Below, piece by piece: positions 22,142-41,412 of a DNA stretch of 64,000 nucleotides. Positions within the stretch are counted from its first letter, which is position 1. Every line of letters starts with the position of its first letter. The translations under genes were made by a program, and so were the position numbers. The DNA comes from an uncultured Pseudomonas sp. (GTDB taxonomy: Bacteria > Pseudomonadota > Gammaproteobacteria > Pseudomonadales > Pseudomonadaceae): positions 14,503 through 78,502 of the forward strand of contig CBIFVM010000020.1 of the NCBI GenBank assembly GCA_966186235.1, written 5' to 3'. Below the pieces are notes generated by a model. That model had not been told where the DNA came from, made no database searches, and saw only the letters and a list, made by a program, of their open reading frames with translations.

Positions 22142-22711
22142 ATGTTCAAGCCGCAATTGATCACCCTGCAGCGCGGTGCCCTGCGCATCGAACCGTTGCT
22201 CGATGGCGATATTCCGGCGCTGGTCAGCCTGGCCGAAGCCAATCGCGATGAACTGCTCTACATGAGCGGCACCCAGCGCCTGGACTGGTACCGCCAGGCC
22301 CTGCACGATCAGCGCGAGGAGCGCGCCTTGCCCTTCGTGATCCGCCTGGGTGATCAGGTGGTCGGCACCACCCGTTTCGCCGACTTCATGCCGACCCTGC
22401 CAGCCGTGGAAATCGGCTGGACCTGGCTGGACGCCGCCCAGCACGGTACGGGCCTCAACAGCATGATCAAGTACCTGATGTTGCGGCACGCCTTCGAGAG
22501 CTGGCAGATGGTTCGCGTGCAACTGAAAACCGCCGCCAGCAACCAGCGCTCCCAGCGCGCCATCGAAAAGCTCGGCGCGGTTCGCGAGGGCCTGCTGCGC
22601 AATCATCGCCGCCTGGCCGACGGGCGCCTCGACGACACCGTGCTGTACAGCATCACCGACCAGGAATGGCCGGTGGTCAAGGCCGGGCTGGAGGCACGCT
22701 TCGGCGTGTGA
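22142..22711 (+). CDS. GNAT (RimJ/RimL-like) N-acetyltransferase
   Basis: VEIGWTWL, RVQLKTAASNQRSQRAIEKLGAVREGLLR. Confidence 0.9.
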   Translation: MFKPQLITLQRGALRIEPLLDGDIPALVSLAEANRDELLYMSGTQRLDWYRQALHDQREERALPFVIRLGDQVVGTTRFADFMPTLPAVEIGWTWLDAAQHGTGLNSMIKYLMLRHAFESWQMVRVQLKTAASNQRSQRAIEKLGAVREGLLRNHRRLADGRLDDTVLYSITDQEWPVVKAGLEARFGV

Positions 22712-22714
22712 GCC

Positions 22715-23545
22715 ATGCCCACCGGCGAGCGCATCCGCTTCTGGGAAAGCCCCGCGCTGGCCGGCGTGGAGCTGCTGCAGGCGCGCTACATCAAGCAGCG
22801 CTTCACCCCGCACGTGCATGAAGGTTTCGTATTCACCGTGATCGAGCACGGCGCCCAGCGCTTTCGCCACCGCGGTGCCGATCACCTGGCGCCGGTCGGC
22901 AGCATGGTGCTGATCAACCCGGATGAAGTGCACACCGGCTCGTCGGCCCATGAGCAGGGTTGGTTGTACCGCGCCTTCTACCCGGCGCCGGCCCAGGTCA
23001 ATGGCGTGCTCGACGAACTGGACCTGGCGCACCGGGGCCTGCCGTCGTTCGCCGCCAGCGTGCTGCAGGACGTCGAACTGCATCGGGCCTTCGGCCAGTT
23101 GCACCGCCTGCTCGACAGCGACGCCAGCGTGCTGCAGCAGCAGACGGCATGGCGCGAGACGCTGCTGATGCTGTTCCAGCGCCATGCCGGGGTCAGGCAG
23201 GCGGCCGCCGCCGGTCTGGAGCCGCGGGCGGTGAGCTTGGCCAAGGAGCTCCTGGCCGCGCGCCTGGGCGAGCCGCCATCGCTGGAAGAACTGGCCGCCG
23301 CGGTGAACCTCTCGCCGTTTCATTTCGCCCGGGTGTTTCGCCGCGCCACCGGCCTGCCGCCCCATGCCTGGTTGCAGCAGCGCCGGCTGGAGCAGGCGCG
23401 GGCGCTGCTGCGTGACGGCTGTGCGCCACTGAGCGTGGCGCTGCAACTGGGCTTCGCCGACCAAAGCCACCTGACGCGACAGTTCAAGCAGGTGTATGGC
23501 GTGGGGCCGGGCGAGTATCGCAATGCCTGCCATCGCCGCCCGTAG
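22715..23545 (+). CDS. AraC-family transcriptional regulator
   Basis: Cupin PHVHE, HTH SLEELAAAVNLSPFHFARVF, GFADQSHLTRQFK. Confidence 0.93.
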   Translation: MPTGERIRFWESPALAGVELLQARYIKQRFTPHVHEGFVFTVIEHGAQRFRHRGADHLAPVGSMVLINPDEVHTGSSAHEQGWLYRAFYPAPAQVNGVLDELDLAHRGLPSFAASVLQDVELHRAFGQLHRLLDSDASVLQQQTAWRETLLMLFQRHAGVRQAAAAGLEPRAVSLAKELLAARLGEPPSLEELAAAVNLSPFHFARVFRRATGLPPHAWLQQRRLEQARALLRDGCAPLSVALQLGFADQSHLTRQFKQVYGVGPGEYRNACHRRP

Positions 23546-23613
23546 CCTGCGGTTGAGCGCAGCGATACCCAGGTTTGTTTTCTCGGGTATCGCTGCGCTC
23601 AACCGCAGGCTAC
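23542..23613. repeat. GTAG-family REP doublet (perfect 29-bp inverted repeat)
   Basis: GTAGCCTGCGGTTGAGCGCAGCGATACCC at 23542-23570 and its reverse complement at 23585-23613; 14-bp spacer. Confidence 0.85.
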
Positions 23614-23721
23614 CTAATGTGCGAACTGCGCAAGATCGTTCAAGACAGCGCAAACCTGCTGAGCTAGCCTGATCCGCTTCTGGTCGCCCGCAGGCGATCT
23701 TTTCAGCCAAGCGACGAGCCG

Positions 23722-24432
23722 ATGTCCCGATACCAAGAATTCTTCCAGGGCCTGCGCGACATGCTGCCGATGCTGCTCGGCGCCATGCCGTTCGGCATCA
23801 TCTACGGCAGCCTGGCCGGTGCCGCCGGGCTCGATGCCTGGCAGACCATCGGCATGTCGGTGCTGGTGTTCGCCGGCTCAGCGCAGTTCATCGCCGTCAG
23901 CCTGCTCACCGGCGGCGCCACCCTGGCGGTACTGTGGCTGACCACCCTGGTGGTCAACCTGCGCCATGCGCTGTACAGCGCCACCCTGCAGCCCTTCGTG
24001 CGCTACCTGCCCAAGCGCTGGCGCATGCCGCTGGCGTTCTGGCTGACCGACGAGGCCTTTGCCGTGGTTCAGCAGCGCTACGCCCAGCGCGACGATTCGC
24101 CAAACAAGCATTGGTACTTTCTTGGTGCGGGCCTGGCCATGTACGGCAACTGGATCGGCTGCACGCTGATTGGCCTGCTGTTCGGCCAGGCGGTGCCGAA
24201 CCTCGCTGCCTGGGGGCTGGATTTCGCGATGATCGCCACTTTCGTCGGCATCGTCGTACCGATGCTGCGCAATCGCCCGCAGTTGGCTGCCGCTCTGGTG
24301 GCGGCGGTGGTCGCGCTGATCTTTCACGACCTGCCCTACAAACTCTGGCTGATGGCCGCCGCCTTCGCCGGCATCGTGATCGGCGTGTTGCTCGAACGCG
24401 TCCAGGCGCCCCTGCAGGAGGAGCTTTGCTGA
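23722..24432 (+). CDS. azlC: AzlC-family branched-chain amino-acid exporter, large subunit
   Basis: VFAGSAQF, VNLRHALYS, LTDEAFAV. Confidence 0.9.
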   Translation: MSRYQEFFQGLRDMLPMLLGAMPFGIIYGSLAGAAGLDAWQTIGMSVLVFAGSAQFIAVSLLTGGATLAVLWLTTLVVNLRHALYSATLQPFVRYLPKRWRMPLAFWLTDEAFAVVQQRYAQRDDSPNKHWYFLGAGLAMYGNWIGCTLIGLLFGQAVPNLAAWGLDFAMIATFVGIVVPMLRNRPQLAAALVAAVVALIFHDLPYKLWLMAAAFAGIVIGVLLERVQAPLQEELC

Positions 24433-24761
24433 TGGAAAACTGGATTCTGATCCTCGGCATGCTGGCGATCACCTTCGCCACGCGTTACAGCCTGTTCGCC
24501 TTTCCCGATCTGCGCTTTCCCCAGGCGGTGCGCCAAGCCCTGCATTACGTGCCGACCGCGGTGCTCACTGCCATCGTGGTGCCGGCCATGCTCCTGCCGG
24601 ACGGGCGCAACTGGGCGCTGAGCTGGGACAACGCCTATCTGCTGGCGGGCCTGGCGACCATCGTCATCGCCGTGGTGACGCGCCATCTGCTGGCGACCAT
24701 CGGCGGCGGATTGCTGATCTTCTTCGGGTTGCGCTGGGCGCTGGGGCAATTGCCGATCTGA
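24432..24761 (+). CDS. azlD: AzlD-family exporter, small subunit
   Basis: Overlaps the azlC stop; ITFATRY, ALHYVPTAVLTAIVVP. Confidence 0.88.
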   Translation: MENWILILGMLAITFATRYSLFAFPDLRFPQAVRQALHYVPTAVLTAIVVPAMLLPDGRNWALSWDNAYLLAGLATIVIAVVTRHLLATIGGGLLIFFGLRWALGQLPI

Positions 24762-24776
24762 CGCGGAATCGGATTG

Positions 24777-24791
24777 TTCCACTTATCGCAA
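24777..24791. promoter_or_regulatory. LysR-type T-N11-A box upstream of gst
   Basis: TTCCACTTATCGCAA in an AT-rich patch about 105 bp before the GST start. Confidence 0.4.
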
Positions 24792-24895
24792 TAAAGTAAT
24801 GCCGACAACGCGTATTCCTCAAAACGCGCTGCGGTCGCAAGCTGGTTGCACGGCTCGGGACTTCTCCCGGCCCACCGTCAACCAGGAGCCGACCC

Positions 24896-25513
24896 ATGAA
24901 AATCCATCACGTCCCCCTGTCCGGCCATGCCCACCGCGCCGTTTTGTTCGCCTCGCTGCTTGGTCTGAAACCCGAGCTGGTCGAGGTCGACCTGGCCGGC
25001 GGTGCCAACAAGCAGCCTGAATTTCTCGCGCTCAACCCCTTCGGCCAGGTGCCGGTGCTGGAAGACGACGGCGTGGTGGTCGCCGACTCCAACGCCATTC
25101 TCGTTTACTTGGCCAAGAAGACCGGGCGCACCGACTGGTTGCCGGAAGACCCCGCCGGTGCGGCGGCGGTGCAGCGTTGGCTGTCCGTGGCCGCCGGCGA
25201 ACTGGCTTACGGCCCGTGCGCGGCGCGCCTGATCACGGTATTCGGTGCCGACTTCAATGCCGAGGAAGTGATCGCCCGTGCCCACGTGCTGCTCGCCCGC
25301 CTGGAGCGCCACCTGAGCGGTCGCCAGTGGCTGGCCGCCGACCACCCGACCATCGCCGACGTGGCGCTGTACAGCTACCTGGCGCGGGCGCCGGAGGGCA
25401 ATGTCGACCTGTCGGCCTACGAGCAGGTCCGGGCCTTCCTGGCGCGCATCGAGGCGCTGCCCGGCTTCGTGGCCATTCCCCAGACGCCTGCCGGGCTGAC
25501 CGCCAACGCCTGA
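24896..25513 (+). CDS. Glutathione S-transferase
   Basis: LSGHAHR N-terminus, [28 protein letters not shown]. Confidence 0.92.
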
Positions 25514-25545
25514 GCCTGTGCGCCACCGCCTCCAGGAGAACCGCC

Positions 25546-27615
25546 ATGACCGATCTCGCCAAAACGCCCGCACCCTGGCATGCGGGCGAAACCTTCATCC
25601 AGGAAAAGCTCGGCGTCGCCGAACGGATGGATGCGGTCGGCAAACGCGTGGTACGCGACTTCATGCCCGACCAGCACCGGGATTTCTACGCCCAGCTGCC
25701 GTTCATCGTGCTGGGCAGCGTGGATGGGCAGGGCGATGCCTGGGCCGGCGTGCTCGAGGGCCAGGCCGGTTTCATCGCCTCGCCGACGCCCACCACGCTG
25801 GACATTGCCGCCCGGCCCCAGGCCGACGACCCTATCGGCCAGGGCATGGGCGAGGGCGCTGCGCTGGGCCTCCTGGGCATCGAACTGCACAGCCGGCGGC
25901 GTAACCGCATGAACGGCGTGGTGGCGGCGGGCGGCAAGGGCCTGCGGGTGGCGGTCGAGCAGAGTTTCGGCAACTGCCCACGGTATATCCAGCAGCGCGA
26001 CTTTACCTTCGCCCGTGATCCGGCGGTGCCGTTCGCCGCTACCGTCGAGCAGTTGCCGGCACTGGATGCCGCGGCGCGGGCAGTGATCGAAGGCGCCGAC
26101 ACCTTTTTCGTGGCGACCTATGCCGATGTCGACGGGCAGCGCCAGGTGGACGTCTCGCACCGTGGCGGCAACACCGGCTTCGTGCGCATCGATGCCGACG
26201 GCACCCTGACCATTCCGGACTTCAACGGCAACCTGTTCTTTTCCACCCTCGGCAACATCGTGCTCAACGGCAAGGCCGGTCTGCTGTTCGTGGATTTCGC
26301 CACGGGCGACGTGCTGCAACTGAGCGGCGACGCCGAGGTCATCTTCGAATCCCCGGAAATCGGCGCCTTTCAGGGCGCCGAGCGGCTGTGGACCTTCCGG
26401 CCCCGGCGTATCGTGCGGCGCCCGGCTGCCATGGCCCTGCGCTGGGCCCTGCGCGAGGACGGCTGGGCGGACACCTCGCTGCTCACCGGCAACTGGCAAC
26501 AGGCCGCCGATCAGCTACGCGCGGCCCAGTACGCCACGCAGTGGCGGCCAATGAGGATTGCGCGCATCGTTGAGGAAAGCCGGTCGATCCGTTCCCTGCA
26601 TCTGGAGCCGATCGACGGTGCCGGGGTGTTGCCGCACCTGGCCGGCCAGCATCTGCCGATTCGGCTGCAAGTGGCCGCGGGCGAGAAGCCGCTGATTCGT
26701 ACCTACACCCTGTCGGTGGCGCCGTCCGATGGCATCTACCGGATCAGCGTCAAGCGCGAGGGGCGGGTGTCGCAATTCATCCATGACGGGTTGCGCGAGG
26801 GCGATCTGATCGACGCCCGCGCGCCGGCCGGGGCATTCACCCTCGATGCGCAGGAGGAGCGCCCGCTGGTGCTGCTGGCCGGTGGCATCGGCATCACGCC
26901 GATGCTGGCGATGCTGCGCCATGTGCTCTACGAAGGCTGGCGCCGGCAGCGGATCAGGCCTGTCACATTGTTCTACGCCGCGCGCTCGAAAGTCGAGCGC
27001 GCCTTCGACCGCGAACTCGGCGACCTGGTGGCCGCTGCCCAGGGCGCGGTCAGGCTGGTACGGGTGCTGAGCGACACCAGCGGCGCCGAGCCGGGTGTCG
27101 ATTACGACACTGCCGGGCGCATCGACATGGCGCTGCTGACCCGTTATCTGGCCTTCGATGATTACGCCTTCTACCTGTGCGGGCCGCCGGCCTTCACCCA
27201 GGGGCTGTACGACGGCCTGCGCGGCTACAACATCGCCGATGGGCGCATCCATGCCGAAGGCTTCGGGCCGGCGTCCCTGGTGCGTCGCCCCGATCAGCCG
27301 GCGGCGGCCGCCGCCGTGACGGCTCCGCCGGCCACCGAGGCGGTGCCGGTGCTGTTTACCGAGTCGCTGAAGGAGGGGCGCTGGACACCGGGCTCCGGTA
27401 CTTTGCTGGAACTGGCCGAGGCTAGAGGCTTGGAACCGGAGTTCAGTTGCCGCGAAGGCTCTTGTGGCACCTGCAAGACGCGCCTGGTGAAAGGCGCAGT
27501 GAGCTACCTGAAAGAACCCAGTGCGCCCCACGGCGACGATGAAGTGCTGATCTGCTGTGCAGTGCCGGCGCAGCCGCAAGGCGCCGATGACGAGCGCCTC
27601 GAACTGGCGCTCTGA
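25546..27615 (+). CDS. Fusion: tandem pyridoxamine-5'-phosphate-oxidase-like domains + FNR-type FAD/NAD(P) reductase + 2Fe-2S ferredoxin
   Basis: PWHAGE start, DVSHRGG..GFV, RTYTLS, GGIGITP, YLCGP, CREGSCGTC...C; SD AGGAG; 689 aa. Confidence 0.88.
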   Translation: MTDLAKTPAPWHAGETFIQEKLGVAERMDAVGKRVVRDFMPDQHRDFYAQLPFIVLGSVDGQGDAWAGVLEGQAGFIASPTPTTLDIAARPQADDPIGQGMGEGAALGLLGIELHSRRRNRMNGVVAAGGKGLRVAVEQSFGNCPRYIQQRDFTFARDPAVPFAATVEQLPALDAAARAVIEGADTFFVATYADVDGQRQVDVSHRGGNTGFVRIDADGTLTIPDFNGNLFFSTLGNIVLNGKAGLLFVDFATGDVLQLSGDAEVIFESPEIGAFQGAERLWTFRPRRIVRRPAAMALRWALREDGWADTSLLTGNWQQAADQLRAAQYATQWRPMRIARIVEESRSIRSLHLEPIDGAGVLPHLAGQHLPIRLQVAAGEKPLIRTYTLSVAPSDGIYRISVKREGRVSQFIHDGLREGDLIDARAPAGAFTLDAQEERPLVLLAGGIGITPMLAMLRHVLYEGWRRQRIRPVTLFYAARSKVERAFDRELGDLVAAAQGAVRLVRVLSDTSGAEPGVDYDTAGRIDMALLTRYLAFDDYAFYLCGPPAFTQGLYDGLRGYNIADGRIHAEGFGPASLVRRPDQPAAAAAVTAPPATEAVPVLFTESLKEGRWTPGSGTLLELAEARGLEPEFSCREGSCGTCKTRLVKGAVSYLKEPSAPHGDDEVLICCAVPAQPQGADDERLELAL

Positions 27616-27708
27616 GCGGCGCAGCGAGCGAACCTTGGGCAGCCCCGCGCACAGTTTTTGTCGGGGCTGCCTTCAAGCTCGATTTGGGCCGGCAGGGCGC
27701 ACAAGAGC

Positions 27709-27730
27709 TCGAGGCTGAAGCCTCTCCTAC
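27709..27730 (-). repeat. Single GTAG-family REP of a second type
   Basis: Reverse strand GTAGGAGAGGCTTCAGCCTCGA with internal palindrome GAGGCT-TC-AGCCTC. Confidence 0.65.
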
Positions 27731-27889
27731 GCGATTGCGGATGGCAGCTAGGGTAATGGAGCCCGCGTTCCTGCGTGGCCGCTCGACCATGCAGCCTCAA
27801 TCGCATAGCCGCTCAGGGCGCGCAGATACGGCATACTCGCTGGGCTGCGCCACCAGCGCAGCCAACGCCTAAAGCAGAGGAGCGGGTGG

Positions 27890-28780
27890 ATGGATCGTTG
27901 GCAGGCGATGCGGGTATTCGTGAAGGTCGCGGAGACGGGCAGCTTCGCCAGTACCGCGCGGCAGATGCACATGAGCGCGCCGGCAGTGACACGCATCGTC
28001 GCCGGCCTCGAGGACCTGATCGGCGCGCGGCTGCTGGTGCGCACCACCCGTTCGGTGAAGACCACCGATGCCGGCAGCCGCTACCTGCAGGATTGTCGGC
28101 GCATTCTCGCCGATATCGCCGAGGCGGAACTGGCCGCAGCCGGGCATTACGCCGAGCCGTCCGGCACCCTGGCGGTGACCGCGGCGTCGATGTTCGGCCA
28201 CCTGCACGTGCTGCCCCTGGTGCTCGATTACCTGGATGCCTACCCGGGCATGCACGCGCGCACCTTTTTCGTCGACCGGCCGGTGAATATCCTCGACGAG
28301 GGCATCGACGTGGCGGTTCGTATCGGTCACCTGGCGGATTCGGGCTTTACCGCCATCCAGGTCGGCGCGGTACGCCGGGTGATCTGCGCGGCGCCGTGTT
28401 ACCTGGAGAAATACGGCGTACCGACCACGCCCGCCGACTTGAAACACCATCGCATCGCCGTGTCGCAAAGCGCCTGGGCTTCGCCGGAATGGCGCTTCGC
28501 CGAGGGCCAGCGAGTGCTGGTCGACCCGGTGCTGCAATGCAACACCAACGAGTCGGCGATCGCCACGGCCAGGGCCGGCTGGGGACTGACCCGGGTGCTG
28601 CACTATCAGGTCGGCCAGGCGCTGCAGGAGGGCGCGCTGCAGGTCGTGCTCGAAGGCTTCGAGGAGCCACCGCTGCCGATCCACGTGCTGTACCCCGAGG
28701 GCCGTCAGGCGCCGGCCAAGGTGCGCGCCTTCGTCGACCTGGCCGTGGCGCGCCTGCGTGGCAACCCGCTGTTCAACTGA
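27890..28780 (+). CDS. LysR-family transcriptional regulator
   Basis: MDRWQAMRVFVKVAETGSF..AR, LEDLIGARLLVRTTR, DEGIDVAVRIG. Confidence 0.95.
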   Translation: MDRWQAMRVFVKVAETGSFASTARQMHMSAPAVTRIVAGLEDLIGARLLVRTTRSVKTTDAGSRYLQDCRRILADIAEAELAAAGHYAEPSGTLAVTAASMFGHLHVLPLVLDYLDAYPGMHARTFFVDRPVNILDEGIDVAVRIGHLADSGFTAIQVGAVRRVICAAPCYLEKYGVPTTPADLKHHRIAVSQSAWASPEWRFAEGQRVLVDPVLQCNTNESAIATARAGWGLTRVLHYQVGQALQEGALQVVLEGFEEPPLPIHVLYPEGRQAPAKVRAFVDLAVARLRGNPLFN

Positions 28781-28876
28781 AAAGGCGCGACGCGTCGACA
28801 AAAATGCCCGCGGCTGTGGCTTTGCCCGAGCCGTTGCAGTCCAATGCTCATCGAATCCGCAAAGGGAAAGGTATCG

Positions 28877-30751
28877 ATGAGTCAGCACTCGCAATTCGCT
28901 CTGCTGAAGAGCCGGCGCTTCCTGCCGTTCTTCGTCACGCAGCTGCTCGGCGCGTTCAACGACAACATCTTCAAGCAGTCGTTGATCCTGGCGATTCTCT
29001 TCAAGCTCAGCCTGGAGGCGGATCGCGACCTGCTGGTCAACGTCGCGGCCATGCTGTTCATCCTGCCGTTCTTCCTGTTTTCCGCCCTCGGCGGCCAGTT
29101 CGGCGAGAAGTTCGCCAAGGACCTGCTGATCCGCCGGCTGAAGTTCTTCGAGATCTTCATCATGCTGGTCGGCGCCCTCGGCGTGCTGCTCGGCAACCTG
29201 ACGCTGATGCTCGCGGTGCTGTTCACCATGGGCATTCAATCGGCGCTGTTCGGCCCGGTGAAGTACTCGATCCTGCCCCAGGCGCTCAAACCCGAGGAGT
29301 TGGTAGGCGGCAACGCGCTGGTGGAAATGGGCACCTTCCTGGCGATCCTGGCGGGCACCATCGGCGCCGGCATCATGCTCACCAGTGCCCACTACAGCGT
29401 GATCGTCGCCGTCTCGGTGGTGCTGGTGGCGATGCTCGGCTATCTGTCGGCCCGCGGCATTCCGCGGGCCGGTGCCGCGCTGCCGAACCTGGCGCTGGAC
29501 TGGAACATCTTCCGGCAAACCTGGCTGACCCTGCGCATGGGCCTGACGCAGCCCAAGGCGGTGTCGCGCTCGCTGGTCGGCAACTCGTGGTTCTGGTTTC
29601 TCGGCGCGGTGTACCTGACCCAGATCCCGGCATACTCCAAGGAGTGGCTACACGGTGACGAGAGCGTGGTCACCCTGATTCTCACCGTTTTTTCGGTGGG
29701 CATCGCGCTGGGCTCGATGCTTTGCGAGCGCATGAGCGGGCGCAAGGTGGAAATAGGCCTGGTGCTGTTCGGCTCCATCGGCCTGACGGTGTTCGGCATC
29801 CTGCTCTGGGCGGCCTCGGGTGGCATTCCCGAGGCGGCGCAGCCCTACAACTGGCTGGCGCTGCTGGGCTTCGGCCACGCCTGGTGGGTAATGGCCTCGA
29901 TCCTCGGCATTGGCGTGTTCGGCGGCTTCTACATCGTGCCGCTGTATGCGTTGATCCAGTCACGCACCGCCGAGAACGAGCGGGCCCGGGTGATCGCCGC
30001 CAACAACATTCTCAATGCGGCGTTCATGGTCGTCTCGGCAGTGGTGTCGATCCTGTTCCTGAGCGTCGCCGGGCTGTCGATCCCCCAGCTGTTCCTGGTC
30101 ATTTCGCTGATGAACGTGGCGGTCAACAGTTACATCTTCAAGATCGTCCCCGAATTCACCATGCGCTTCCTGATCTGGATGCTCGGCCACTCCATGTACC
30201 GGGTGTCGCACAAGGGCCTCGACTCGATTCCGGAAGAGGGGCCGGCGGTGCTGGTGTGCAACCACGTATCGTTCGTCGATGCGCTGCTGATCGGTGGTGC
30301 GGTGCGTCGCCCGGTGCGCTTCGTGATGTACTACAAGATCTACAACCTGCCGGTGCTCAACTTCATCTTCCGCACCGCCGGTACCGTGCCGATTGCCGGG
30401 CGCAACGAGGACCTGCTGGTGTTCGATGCAGCGTTCAAGCGCATCGGCGAATACCTGCGCGACGGCGAGCTGGTGTGCATTTTCCCCGAGGGCAAGCTGA
30501 CCGCCGACGGCGAGATCGACGAGTTCAAGGCGGGCGTGGAGCGCATCCTGCAGGACAACCCGGTACCGGTGATTCCCATGGCGCTGGGCGGGCTGTGGGG
30601 CAGCTTCTTCAGCCGTGACCCGCGCAAGGGCCTGTTCCGCCGCTTCTGGTCGCGGATCGACCTGGTAGCGGGCGCGCCCATCGAGGCAACGGCGGCGACG
30701 CGGCTGGTGCTGCAGGCCGAGGTGAAGGCGTTGCGTGGGGATAATCGCTAG
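28877..30751 (+). CDS. MFS transporter fused to PlsC-type acyltransferase (LplT/Aas-like)
   Basis: RFLPFFVTQLLGAFNDN, GPVKYSILPQ; acyltransferase NHVSFVD and IFPEG; 624 aa. Confidence 0.92.
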   Translation: MSQHSQFALLKSRRFLPFFVTQLLGAFNDNIFKQSLILAILFKLSLEADRDLLVNVAAMLFILPFFLFSALGGQFGEKFAKDLLIRRLKFFEIFIMLVGALGVLLGNLTLMLAVLFTMGIQSALFGPVKYSILPQALKPEELVGGNALVEMGTFLAILAGTIGAGIMLTSAHYSVIVAVSVVLVAMLGYLSARGIPRAGAALPNLALDWNIFRQTWLTLRMGLTQPKAVSRSLVGNSWFWFLGAVYLTQIPAYSKEWLHGDESVVTLILTVFSVGIALGSMLCERMSGRKVEIGLVLFGSIGLTVFGILLWAASGGIPEAAQPYNWLALLGFGHAWWVMASILGIGVFGGFYIVPLYALIQSRTAENERARVIAANNILNAAFMVVSAVVSILFLSVAGLSIPQLFLVISLMNVAVNSYIFKIVPEFTMRFLIWMLGHSMYRVSHKGLDSIPEEGPAVLVCNHVSFVDALLIGGAVRRPVRFVMYYKIYNLPVLNFIFRTAGTVPIAGRNEDLLVFDAAFKRIGEYLRDGELVCIFPEGKLTADGEIDEFKAGVERILQDNPVPVIPMALGGLWGSFFSRDPRKGLFRRFWSRIDLVAGAPIEATAATRLVLQAEVKALRGDNR

Positions 30752-39608: not shown

Positions 39609-41412
39609 TATCCAGGATCGTCAGATGCCCATCGAGGCCCACGGCATCATCGGCGACATGCGCAGTGCCGCGTTGGTCGCCGACAGTGGTTGCGTGGACT
39701 TCTTCTGCTGGCCGGATTTCGACAGCCCGTCGATCTTCAGTGCCTTGCTCGACACGCCCGAAGCCGGGGTTTTTCAGCTGGCGCCGGATCTGCCCGAGGC
39801 GCGCCGTCAGCAGCTGTACCTGCCCGATACCAACGTGCTGCAAACGCGCTGGCTGGACGAGCAAGCGGTGGTGGAATGCACCGACCTGATGCCGATCAAC
39901 GCGGATGTCGATGCCGCGCCAAGGCTGATCCGTACCATTCGCGTGGTCTCCGGCCACGCCACCATCCGCCTGCGCTGTCGGGTGCGCCACGATTACAGCC
40001 GCGCTGACACGGTCGCCGGGCTGGAAGGCGGCGACGTGCTGTTCACTGCGCTGGGCCAGCCCAGCCTGCGGCTGTCGGCGAGCGAGGCGCTGGTGGTCGA
40101 CGATCAGTGCGCGGTCGCCGAATTCGAGTTGCGTGAAGGCCAACATGCGGAATTCGTGCTGGGTGCGACGGATGATCCGCTGGTATCCGCCGGTGCCTGC
40201 GAGCACTGCCGCGACGAGACGGTGAAGTACTGGCGGCGCTGGATGAAGCAGTCCAACTACCGTGGGCGCTGGCGCGAGATGGTGCATCGCTCGGCCCTGG
40301 CGCTCAAGCTGCTGACCTCGCGCAAGCATGGCGGCATCATCGCCGCCGCCACCTACGGCCTGCCGGAGGCACCGGGCGGTGAGCGCAACTGGGATTATCG
40401 CTACACCTGGATTCGCGACGCCTCGTTCACCGTCTACGCGTTCATGCGCCTGGGGTTTTCCGAGGAAGCCAATGCCTTCATGCGCTGGGTGCGCGATCGC
40501 GTAGACGACTGCTCGGAAACACCCGCGCACCTGCGCATTCTCTACAGCCTGCGCGGGCAGCATCATCTGCCGGAAAGCTCGCTCGATCACCTGGCCGGCC
40601 ATGGCGGTGCGAAGCCGGTGCGCATCGGCAACGAAGCCCACGAGCAGACCCAGCTGGATATCTTCGGTGAACTGCTGGATGCCGTGTACCTGGCCAACAA
40701 GTACGGCGAGGCAATTTCCCACGACGGCTGGAAGCACGTGGTGGGTATCGTCGATCAGGTCTGCGACAGCTGGCGGCAGAAGGACGTCGGCATCTGGGAA
40801 ATTCGTGGCGAAGAGCAGCATTTCCTGCATTCGCGGCTGATGTGCTGGGTCGCCCTGGATCGTGCCATCCGTTTGGCCCAGAAGCGTTCGCTGCCGGCAC
40901 CGTTCGCGCGCTGGAACGACGAGCGCCAGGCCATCCATGACGACATCTGGAACAATTTCTGGGACGAGAGCTGCGGCCATTTCGTGCAGCGCATCGGCTG
41001 TCAGCACGTCGACGGCTCCATGCTGCTGATGCCGCTGATGCGTTTCGTCGCCGCCACCGATCCGCGCTGGCTGGCCACCCTCGAGGCCATCGAACAACAG
41101 CTGGTGCGCGACGGCATGGTGTATCGCTACCGCACCGATGATGGGCTGGAAGGCGAGGAAGGATCGTTCCTTGCCTGCTCGTTCTGGTACGTCGAGTGCC
41201 TGGCGCGCGCCGGCAGGATCGAAAAGGCCCACCTGGAATTCGAGCAGTTGCTGCGCTATGCCAATCCGCTGGGGCTGTATGCCGAAGAGCTCGATCGGCG
41301 TGGCCATCATCTGGGCAACACCCCCCAGGCGCTGAGCCACCTGGCGCTGATCAGCGCGGCGAGTTTTCTCGATCACCGGCTCAGTGGCGAGCGCACGACC
41401 TGGCAACCCTGA
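39601..41412 (+). CDS. Glycoside hydrolase family 15 (trehalase/glucoamylase-like)
   Basis: HGIIGDMRSAALV, RNWDYRYTWIRD, GIWEIRG, EGSFLACSFW, GNTPQALSH. Confidence 0.92.
   Translation: MADIQDRQMPIEAHGIIGDMRSAALVADSGCVDFFCWPDFDSPSIFSALLDTPEAGVFQLAPDLPEARRQQLYLPDTNVLQTRWLDEQAVVECTDLMPINADVDAAPRLIRTIRVVSGHATIRLRCRVRHDYSRADTVAGLEGGDVLFTALGQPSLRLSASEALVVDDQCAVAEFELREGQHAEFVLGATDDPLVSAGACEHCRDETVKYWRRWMKQSNYRGRWREMVHRSALALKLLTSRKHGGIIAAATYGLPEAPGGERNWDYRYTWIRDASFTVYAFMRLGFSEEANAFMRWVRDRVDDCSETPAHLRILYSLRGQHHLPESSLDHLAGHGGAKPVRIGNEAHEQTQLDIFGELLDAVYLANKYGEAISHDGWKHVVGIVDQVCDSWRQKDVGIWEIRGEEQHFLHSRLMCWVALDRAIRLAQKRSLPAPFARWNDERQAIHDDIWNNFWDESCGHFVQRIGCQHVDGSMLLMPLMRFVAATDPRWLATLEAIEQQLVRDGMVYRYRTDDGLEGEEGSFLACSFWYVECLARAGRIEKAHLEFEQLLRYANPLGLYAEELDRRGHHLGNTPQALSHLALISAASFLDHRLSGERTTWQP

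Follow-up and report, generated by a model that had tools for sequence, protein, structure and literature searches.

Flavoproteins of the pyridoxamine 5'-phosphate oxidase (PNPOx)-like type, such as general stress protein 26, the Nim nitroimidazole reductases, the mycobacterial F420-dependent reductases and the proteins of TIGR04025, share a split-barrel fold, which in PNPOx is dimeric, and their usual substrates are quinones, nitro compounds and activated double bonds. A different arrangement is found in the YcbX and mARC chains, in which a NAD(P)H flavoprotein and a one-electron carrier feed a small catalytic domain for the reduction of N-oxide or N-hydroxylated compounds; YcbX itself carries a C-terminal 2Fe-2S domain, and its catalytic domain is a molybdenum MOSC domain, not a split barrel. 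At the level of gene content, Sphingobium chlorophenolicum combines a glutathione transferase (GST) dehalogenase (PcpC), a ferredoxin-type benzoquinone reductase (PcpD) and a LysR activator (PcpR), although PcpD lacks a split barrel and the pathway encoded by the pcp genes is catabolic and includes a monooxygenase and a ring-cleavage enzyme. The present analysis concerns the gst-oxr-lysR locus of an uncultured Pseudomonas sp., located in a 64,000-nucleotide stretch of contig CBIFVM010000020.1 (hereafter, the window), where the same three kinds of player are found as an analogy only, and where the Oxr protein follows the logic of the YcbX and mARC chains and, like YcbX, ends in a 2Fe-2S domain. 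The best-supported interpretation is that Oxr is a self-sufficient, FNR/2Fe-2S-fused redox enzyme of a LysR-controlled detoxification operon, and that it represents a widespread family for which an operator has now been defined. A probability of about 55% was assigned to the operon being an inducible system for NAD(P)H-driven reductive detoxification.

As the sequence-only reading of this DNA had claimed, the locus consists of three real open reading frames (ORFs), all of them on the forward strand. The first, gst (24896-25513), encodes a 205-aa cytosolic GST of the Ser type with Pfam GST_N and GST_C domains; the second, oxr (25546-27615), whose ATG at 25546 is preceded by AGGAGA, encodes the 689-aa fusion protein; and the third, lysR (27890-28780), encodes a 296-aa LysR-type regulator that is YafC/AaeR-like, falls in the CrgA/AphB structural group and carries Pfam HTH_1 and LysR_substrate domains. 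No named NCBIfam equivalog was obtained for the GST, Oxr or LysR proteins.

Two PNPOx-like split barrels had been proposed for Oxr, and predicted structures confirmed both of them, although Pfam matches barrel 2 only. Residues 1-335 were modelled with AlphaFold2 from a 62-sequence alignment, with a predicted local distance difference test (pLDDT) score of 94.5, residues 1-162, which contain barrel 1, were modelled alone (pLDDT 85), and the models were searched against 48,161 PDB representatives. Barrel 1, predicted at aa 35-149 (nt 25648-25992, + strand), matched 2htd with Z 11.8 and a root-mean-square deviation (rmsd) of 2.2 over 100 residues, and every one of its 46 chains at Z ≥ 8 was a split barrel. 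The matches of the 1-335 model were dominated by barrel 2 (aa 163-303; nt 26032-26454, + strand), with Z 9.0 and rmsd 2.3 over 116 residues to 2htd, and Z 8.8 to YviC bound to flavin mononucleotide (FMN). Of the heme-binding or heme-degrading split-barrel proteins (HugZ, HutZ, ChuZ and HupZ), HupZ reached Z 8.9 for barrel 2 and 11.0 for barrel 1, ChuZ 5.8 and 8.4, and HutZ 5.9 and 8.2, and in the fold lists for both barrels FMN-binding and heme-binding chains tie. Since both N-terminal halves match split-barrel chains in this search, Oxr is predicted to start with two PNPOx-like split barrels, which would form a pseudo-dimer within one chain.

At the sequence level, barrel 2 passes Pfam PNPOx_N (37 bits versus a cut-off of 28.1) and barrel 1 has no Pfam match, while TIGR04025, the MSMEG_1061/DR_2398 FMN-dependent PPOX type, reaches 70 bits against a cut-off of 170 and covers residues 165-272 only. 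Because hhalign aligns just 16 columns of the two barrels, at a probability of 36%, their duplication is argued from fold and not from sequence. Additionally, a profile of the 62 barrel sequences found no relative among all PDB sequences (best E 0.37), and a search of the ESM Atlas returned only PNPOx clusters with generic names. Within the barrels, E15, R119 and R121 (in the HTRRRNR run, which holds the R117-R121 cluster), G142-N143-C144 (in SFGNCPxYIQ) and G208 are invariant, the latter within a nearly invariant S204-H-R-G-G208 motif, His12 is likewise invariant, and His44 and His205 are nearly so, at 90% or more. Cys144, the cysteine of the GNCP motif, was invariant in two alignments, and GNCP was present in 132 of the 150 best family representatives. 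The Arg-rich cluster and the SHRGG motif appear to be of the type usual for flavin-phosphate binding.

The barrels are followed by a reductase for flavin adenine dinucleotide (FAD) and NAD(P)H, at aa 331-577 (nt 26536-27276, + strand), and by a 2Fe-2S ferredoxin domain at aa 603-676 (nt 27352-27573, + strand). The Pfam domains along Oxr are PNPOx_N (173-272), FAD_binding_6 (337-431), NAD_binding_1 (443-552) and Fer2 (618-674; 41.9 bits), and both FAD_binding_6 and NAD_binding_1 exceed their cut-offs. Among 173 full-length homologues, the flavin motif R385-T-Y-T, the nucleotide motif G446-G-I-G-I-T-P and C545-G-P-P are conserved, as are the cluster cysteines C635-X4-C640-X2-C643...C670/671, which are of the plant-type 2Fe-2S arrangement. 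The nearest relative of the reductase part is flavohemoglobin, with 198 bits to NF009805 over residues 331-577 (cut-off 432) and an E value of 3e-32 to 1cqx. Motifs and fold together support the earlier proposal of a complete chain from NAD(P)H through FAD and 2Fe-2S to the split barrel in one polypeptide.

The linkage of the three genes was evaluated in a neighbour scan of 80 loci encoding Oxr relatives with 62-97% identity. These loci came from Alphaproteobacteria (Rhizobium, Bradyrhizobium, Methylobacterium, Azospirillum, Bosea and Sphingomonas), Betaproteobacteria (Bordetella, Pigmentiphaga, Massilia and Herbaspirillum) and Gammaproteobacteria (Pseudomonas and Luteibacter), and their hosts are mostly rhizosphere and phyllosphere genera. 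A GST with 69-99% identity to that of the window was found 35-185 bp upstream of oxr, on the same strand, in all 79 loci with enough flank, and a LysR with 70-99% identity (55% in one case) was found downstream of oxr, on the same strand, at a distance of 54 to 1,700 bp, in approximately 55 of the 80. Co-occurrence had been chosen beforehand as the test that could refute the proposed module, and it was verified that the trio does recur elsewhere. The placement of lysR downstream and co-oriented, instead of divergent as is usual, though not required, for LysR-type regulators, was likewise borne out both in the window and in these approximately 55 close loci.

The genes that occupy the interval between oxr and lysR in other genomes were identified by clustering all ORFs of the 80 loci and by Pfam scans. 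A DUF1348 gene (NTF2/SnoaL-like) was present in 42 loci, a 105-aa ORF with no Pfam family in 25, and an AhpD-like gene of the carboxymuconolactone-decarboxylase (CMD) family in 18, and all three are absent from this interval in the window. Because these genes fill the larger gaps, a longer ancestral operon is proposed, with the order gst-oxr-[AhpD-like cmd]-[duf1348]-[orf105]-lysR, of which the trio of the window would be a trimmed short form. The accessory genes, AhpD-like CMD and NTF2-like DUF1348, encode small stress-type proteins, which favours detoxification. Moreover, no catabolic pathway or transporter genes were conserved around the operon in the 80 loci or in the neighbourhoods of stand-alone homologues, and detoxification is favoured over catabolism for this reason. 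In 24 Bradyrhizobium-type loci and two Massilia loci, the dyad ahead of gst, described below, is kept as a perfect palindrome, and no close LysR was found within 6 kb. Whole-genome searches located an orthologue with 75% identity approximately 9 kb downstream in Sphingomonas, and another with 74% identity beside DUF1348, on another contig, in Methylobacterium variabile. The Bradyrhizobium-type loci (L041-L072) also show DJ-1/PfpI, amidohydrolase_2 and Rieske genes upstream of gst, and a divergent TetR gene and a Zn-dependent alcohol dehydrogenase gene downstream of oxr.

A putative operator of the type bound by LysR-type transcriptional regulators (LTTRs) was found upstream of gst at 24773-24795, with the dyad ATTGTTCC-N7-GCAATAAA and the full window sequence ATTGTTCCACTTATCGCAATAAA. 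The family consensus is a 23-bp dyad, ATTATT(G/C)C-N7-G(C/T)AATAAT, with a T-N11-A core, here T6-N11-A18, which is the classic LTTR core. All 80 upstream regions have it, beginning 118-128 bp ahead of the gst start codon, and its arms score 10-16 of 16 positions, whereas shuffled sequences mostly score 7-10. Among 65 distinct sites, T5, T6, A18 and A19 are invariant, and C8 and G16 are nearly so. The dyad is the sole site without mismatch in the window, where shuffles gave a mean of 0.09 matches at up to two mismatches, and the host genome holds one other site within one mismatch, inside ORFs. The operator-like sites at 40934-40956 of the window and at G000:C15:86538 lie inside ORFs and were taken as chance. 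The sequence-only reading had pointed to a bare T-N11-A box before gst; on its own this box is uninformative, occurring five times in the 134-bp intergenic region, but it stands as the core of the conserved dyad. The same dyad, an LTTR-type element conserved upstream of gst, supports the claim that gst would be inducible and under LysR control.

A scan of the gst upstream region for consensus sigma-70 promoters found nothing. A putative activator-dependent promoter was delimited at 24812-24843 (+ strand), composed of an ATTC box at 24812-24820 and a weak -10-like CAAGCT at 24838-24843, 17 nt apart, and both boxes remain in register across the upstream regions of all lineages. The ATTC box is a candidate activation site or -35 element, and the two boxes together may constitute the promoter. 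Further downstream, the gst leader contains a stem-loop at 24852-24872 (+ strand), GGCTCGGGA-loop-CCCGGCC, which is conserved across three proteobacterial classes. All 42 distinct gst leaders fold into the same hairpin, with a mean minimum free energy of -11.6 kcal/mol versus -6.6 kcal/mol for shuffles, and compensatory stem changes occur in leaders of Herbaspirillum, Massilia, Methylobacterium and Sphingomonas (L051, L067, L017, L071 and L026). RNAalifold returned no structure from the leader alignment, because differences in loop length shift the 3' arm, whereas folding of single sequences gives the hairpin. Rfam has no family for the gst leader or for the oxr-lysR spacer. The position of the hairpin suggests a place at the 5' end of the mRNA or close to it, where it may act as a 5'-terminal mRNA-stabilising element or correspond to a second protein-binding palindrome.

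The barrel is not confined to the fusion. A search of the barrel region against 1.84 billion representatives (clusters at 50% identity) retrieved 4,873 matches at E ≤ 0.001 and 1,170 at E ≤ 1e-30; approximately 70 of the best 150 matches were stand-alone proteins of up to 360 residues, approximately 49 carried reductase and ferredoxin, and a few carried the reductase only. That the barrel occurs by itself, with the reductase, or with both reductase and ferredoxin is consistent with a catalytic unit whose electron supply is optional. Homologues were present in 21 of 401 sampled genomes of Gammaproteobacteria in the GTDB sense, and the neighbourhoods of 20 further barrel genes from sampled genomes, with 31-53% identity, were inspected. 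A LysR with 27-47% identity adjoins eleven of these distant genes (L109, L110, L111, L113, L114, L118, L120, L121, L123, L125 and L127) and is divergent in most of them (all except L110), and a GST with 48-59% identity lies directly upstream of the barrel gene in L109, L118, L120 and L123. A minimal variant is seen in L109 (G185:C43:101400-114300), where GST, a stand-alone tandem barrel without reductase and DUF1348 are encoded on one strand, with a divergent LysR. Since the GST and LysR partnerships both recur with stand-alone or distant tandem barrels, they are independent of the reductase tail, which suggests that the barrel partners the GST in catalysis and that the reductase is an optional electron source built into the chain. 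The other neighbours of stand-alone forms were varied (efflux outer-membrane protein, glyoxalase, GNAT, DsrE-like, AEC transporter, TetR and nitrilase), and no pathway common to these neighbourhoods was found. Databases label the barrel family only as 'pyridoxamine 5'-phosphate oxidase family protein' or 'FAD-binding oxidoreductase'.

The two partner proteins were also assigned to their families. The GST scores 58.4 bits to GST_N (cut-off 20.9) and 33.9 bits to GST_C (cut-off 20.7), and among 76 distinct orthologues S9-G10-H11 and S65 are invariant, with V52-P53 and D64 invariant or nearly so. These residues place the enzyme with the Ser-type transferases, to which the theta, delta and phi classes belong, and not with the Cys-type disulfide reductases; the position of S9 suggests that it would be the catalytic residue. 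The nearest solved structures are the uncharacterised bacterial proteins 3m8n, 4hz2 and 3m3m, followed by insect delta and plant phi classes, and all NCBIfam equivalogs (MaiA, GstA, YfcG, beta-etherase and others) scored far under their cut-offs, the best being maiA with 69 versus 171 bits. The LysR protein exceeds the cut-offs for HTH_1 (69.8 bits) and LysR_substrate (117.2 bits), reaches 182 bits to NCBIfam YafC, whose cut-off is 470, and has 3mz1, 3hhg and 3szp as its nearest solved structures.

The reading of this locus as an operon is built on gene structure, domain folds, cofactor motifs, linkage and operator conservation, and from these we infer which way the electrons flow, the role of FMN as the last cofactor, LysR-mediated activation and the class of substrate. 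For the sequence-only interpretation this amounts to partial support: the module and its control are backed by the data, whereas the two-step chemistry coupling flavin to glutathione is not. In the proposed mechanism, LysR bound to the dyad would sense a small molecule from soil or plants, most likely one that is redox-active or electrophilic, and would then activate gst-oxr, in a transcript that in many species might also span the accessory genes and lysR. NAD(P)H would reduce the FAD of the Hmp-like reductase, and the C-terminal 2Fe-2S cluster would pass electrons singly to a cofactor bound between the barrels, most likely FMN; the two barrels would mimic the PNPOx-family homodimer in one chain. 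The barrel site could then reduce a quinone, a nitro group, an N-oxide or an activated double bond, and the Ser-type GST would conjugate the compound, or what it is reduced to, with glutathione, isomerise it or carry out a displacement.

Several observations weigh against reductive detoxification as described here. Literature searches found no functional study of the Oxr fusion, the tandem-barrel family or the operon, that is, no experiment or publication on any member. Heme-binding HupZ scores like the FMN-binders (8.9 versus 9.0 for barrel 2 and 11.0 versus 11.8 for barrel 1), and a one-electron Fe-S relay joined to a flavohemoglobin-like reductase would also suit a heme site. A simple flavin reductase leaves the role of the invariant Cys144 unexplained. 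The dyad also occurs without an orthologous LysR, since in two Bradyrhizobium genomes and one Massilia genome the best LTTR is only 46-47% identical and is located elsewhere. Finally, co-transcription of lysR is doubtful in the window, because 274 bp and a stem-loop separate it from oxr.

These points feed different alternatives. That the barrel might instead perform glutathione-linked sulfur chemistry through Cys144, acting on glutathione adducts, mixed disulfides or persulfides, so that the pair would be a device for thiol homeostasis and not a xenobiotic reductase, is an unlikely explanation; the constancy of Cys144 in both alignments and in 132 of 150 representatives, a GST linkage that does not depend on the reductase tail, the AhpD-like gene of a CxxC family in 18 of the 80 operons and a DsrE-like gene beside one stand-alone homologue would be in line with it, but the GST is of the Ser type rather than the disulfide-reducing Cys type, the barrels have no second conserved Cys for a redox pair, and genes for a rhodanese, a persulfide dioxygenase or a sulfite exporter are not conserved in the vicinity. 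It is quite unlikely that the tandem barrel binds heme, as do HupZ, HugZ, Pden_1323 and Anf3, which would make Oxr a self-sufficient, flavohemoglobin-like heme enzyme fed by FAD and 2Fe-2S, with activity in heme degradation, as an oxidase, or in oxygen or nitrogen-oxide chemistry. HupZ is level with the best FMN-binding matches in both barrels, the reductase is most like that of flavohemoglobin and follows an N-terminal acceptor domain as in Hmp, and His12, His44, His205 and Cys144 could be axial ligands; however, the sole sequence-level matches are PNPOx_N and the FMN-dependent PPOX type TIGR04025, the invariant Arg clusters and the SHRGG motif look like flavin-phosphate sites, heme chemistry offers no evident task for the conserved GST, and there are no heme uptake or iron-regulated genes nearby.

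It appears improbable that these genes instead carry out the first reactions in the catabolism of an aromatic or heterocyclic compound from plants or fungi. Rhizosphere and phyllosphere genera do dominate among the hosts, the Bradyrhizobium loci do add Rieske, amidohydrolase_2, DJ-1 and Zn-dependent alcohol dehydrogenase genes, and PcpC, PcpD and PcpR set a precedent in pentachlorophenol degradation, but across lineages only gst, oxr, lysR and the small accessory genes are conserved while the flanks vary by clade, and neither ring-cleavage nor CoA-ligase genes, a dehydrogenase series or an uptake system accompany the operon. Nor is it credible, except at very long odds, that the adjacency is a syntenic accident of three unrelated functions: lysR is not divergent and is separated from oxr by 274 bp with a hairpin and a REP-like repeat, but the co-occurrence data contradict this explanation, with GST in 79 of 79 and LysR in about 55 of 80 loci from three classes despite changing flanks, recurrence in distant relatives and a conserved operator. 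Reductive detoxification is retained as the preferred reading, at the probability given above.

In the oxr-lysR spacer of the window, a GC-rich stem-loop with a 10-bp stem was read from the sequence at 27638-27671 (+ strand), 23 nt after the oxr stop; it could be a partial terminator, but it has no T-tract and the terminator scan made no call. It is followed, at 27692-27749, by a REP-like dispersed repeat, placed where sister species carry the DUF1348 gene, and five further copies of this repeat, with 81-96% identity, occur on other contigs of the same genome (C3, C10, C12, C21 and C46). No DUF1348 remnant was detected in the 274-bp spacer, whose flanks align with those of a DUF1348-bearing sister species (L004). 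The only DUF1348 gene of the host genome lies elsewhere (G000:C43:10439-10828; L117 5983-7087), directly 3' of a TetR-family gene on the same strand and next to genes for a short-chain dehydrogenase/reductase (SDR) family dehydrogenase, a LysR and an EamA transporter. As for the LTTRs with 46-47% identity mentioned above, they are divergent from a single-barrel PNPOx-like gene in Bradyrhizobium (L139 and L140) and 3' of a DUF1348 gene in Massilia (L138); split-barrel and DUF1348 genes may be general partners of this LTTR clade.

The azlCD and major facilitator superfamily (MFS)-acyltransferase genes flank the trio as the sequence-only reading had described. They accompany it in only 8 of the 80 loci, all of the Phytopseudomonas clade, and were rejected as parts of the module. 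The upstream region, at 22142-24761, contains genes for a GNAT acetyltransferase, an AraC-family regulator and the azlC/azlD branched-chain amino-acid exporter, which outside this clade are not conserved with the trio. Downstream lies the gene at 28844-30751, whose 635-aa product joins an LplT-like MFS transporter to a PlsC-type acyltransferase and which is found with the trio in the Phytopseudomonas clade only; its match to acyl-[ACP]-phospholipid O-acyltransferase (503 bits) covers approximately the first 600 positions, and the C-terminal acyl-ACP synthetase part is missing. The host is close to Phytopseudomonas straminea, with 97% Oxr identity in loci L001 and L002.

In a FastTree phylogeny of 81 Oxr proteins, Alphaproteobacteria were separated from Beta- and Gammaproteobacteria with full support, the exceptions being Luteibacter, placed within the alpha clade, and a second Pseudomonas group, placed with Alcaligenaceae. 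The tree requires six changes of class label versus a minimum of two, its internal branches are short, and identity between proteobacterial classes is approximately 65-70%. Oxr would thus be a slow-evolving protein, mostly inherited within families and with few transfers, and a massive horizontal spread was rejected given that the tree largely separates Alpha- from Beta- and Gammaproteobacteria. Two further placements, a contig from a metagenome-assembled genome (MAG) labelled Bordetella parapertussis that nests in Bradyrhizobium (L041) and a Paucimonas MAG contig that nests in Pseudomonas (L048), are probably binning errors and not gene transfers.

With these results, an anonymous fusion protein becomes a defined system, with a regulator and its 23-bp operator, a leader element, two enzymes, three optional accessory genes, and variants with and without the reductase, and a gst promoter reporter could be used to screen for the inducer and hence for the substrate. 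If the substrate were a plant or fungal redox toxin, the system would bear on rhizosphere fitness and on engineered toxin tolerance. The only form in which DUF1348 was met in the literature is Cercospora 71cR, which confers resistance to cercosporin (PMC4608573, PMC7075572), and Xanthomonas is reported to require an 'oxidoreductase' together with a 'transcriptional regulator' for breaking cercosporin down (Taylor 2006, as cited in PMC12662623 and PMC10436009). A long shot in this direction is that the tandem barrel with its GNCP cysteine constitutes a new enzyme family that, together with the GST and, in most lineages, DUF1348, neutralises photosensitising or redox-cycling quinone toxins of fungi and plants. 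Should the Xanthomonas oxidoreductase prove to be a member of the Oxr family, this operon would represent the bacterial version of that system that is widespread, with a defined regulator and operator.

Like the flavohemoglobin Hmp, Oxr places an N-terminal acceptor domain before FAD and NAD domains, but it has no globin match, it carries an extra C-terminal 2Fe-2S domain, and its score is far below the family cut-off. Modules of the phthalate dioxygenase reductase (PDR) type share with it the order of a NAD(P)H/flavin domain followed by a C-terminal 2Fe-2S domain (2pia, E 3.5e-16 across 337-654), although the flavin domain of Oxr is more like the Hmp reductase, which binds FAD, than like PDR, which binds FMN. 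The self-sufficient CYP116B P450 likewise unites an N-terminal catalytic domain and its electron chain in one polypeptide (6laa, E 7e-15). In these two systems, however, catalysis belongs to a P450 or to a separate Rieske oxygenase, whereas Oxr has a tandem PNPOx-like barrel in that place. Finally, the PNPOx-like flavoproteins share the split-barrel fold with both halves of this region, but Oxr differs from them in its two fused barrels, a predicted pseudo-dimer of ~310 residues with the motifs RRRNR, GNCP and SHRGG of its own, and, while those proteins use F420 or free NAD(P)H, in Oxr the electron supply is built in.

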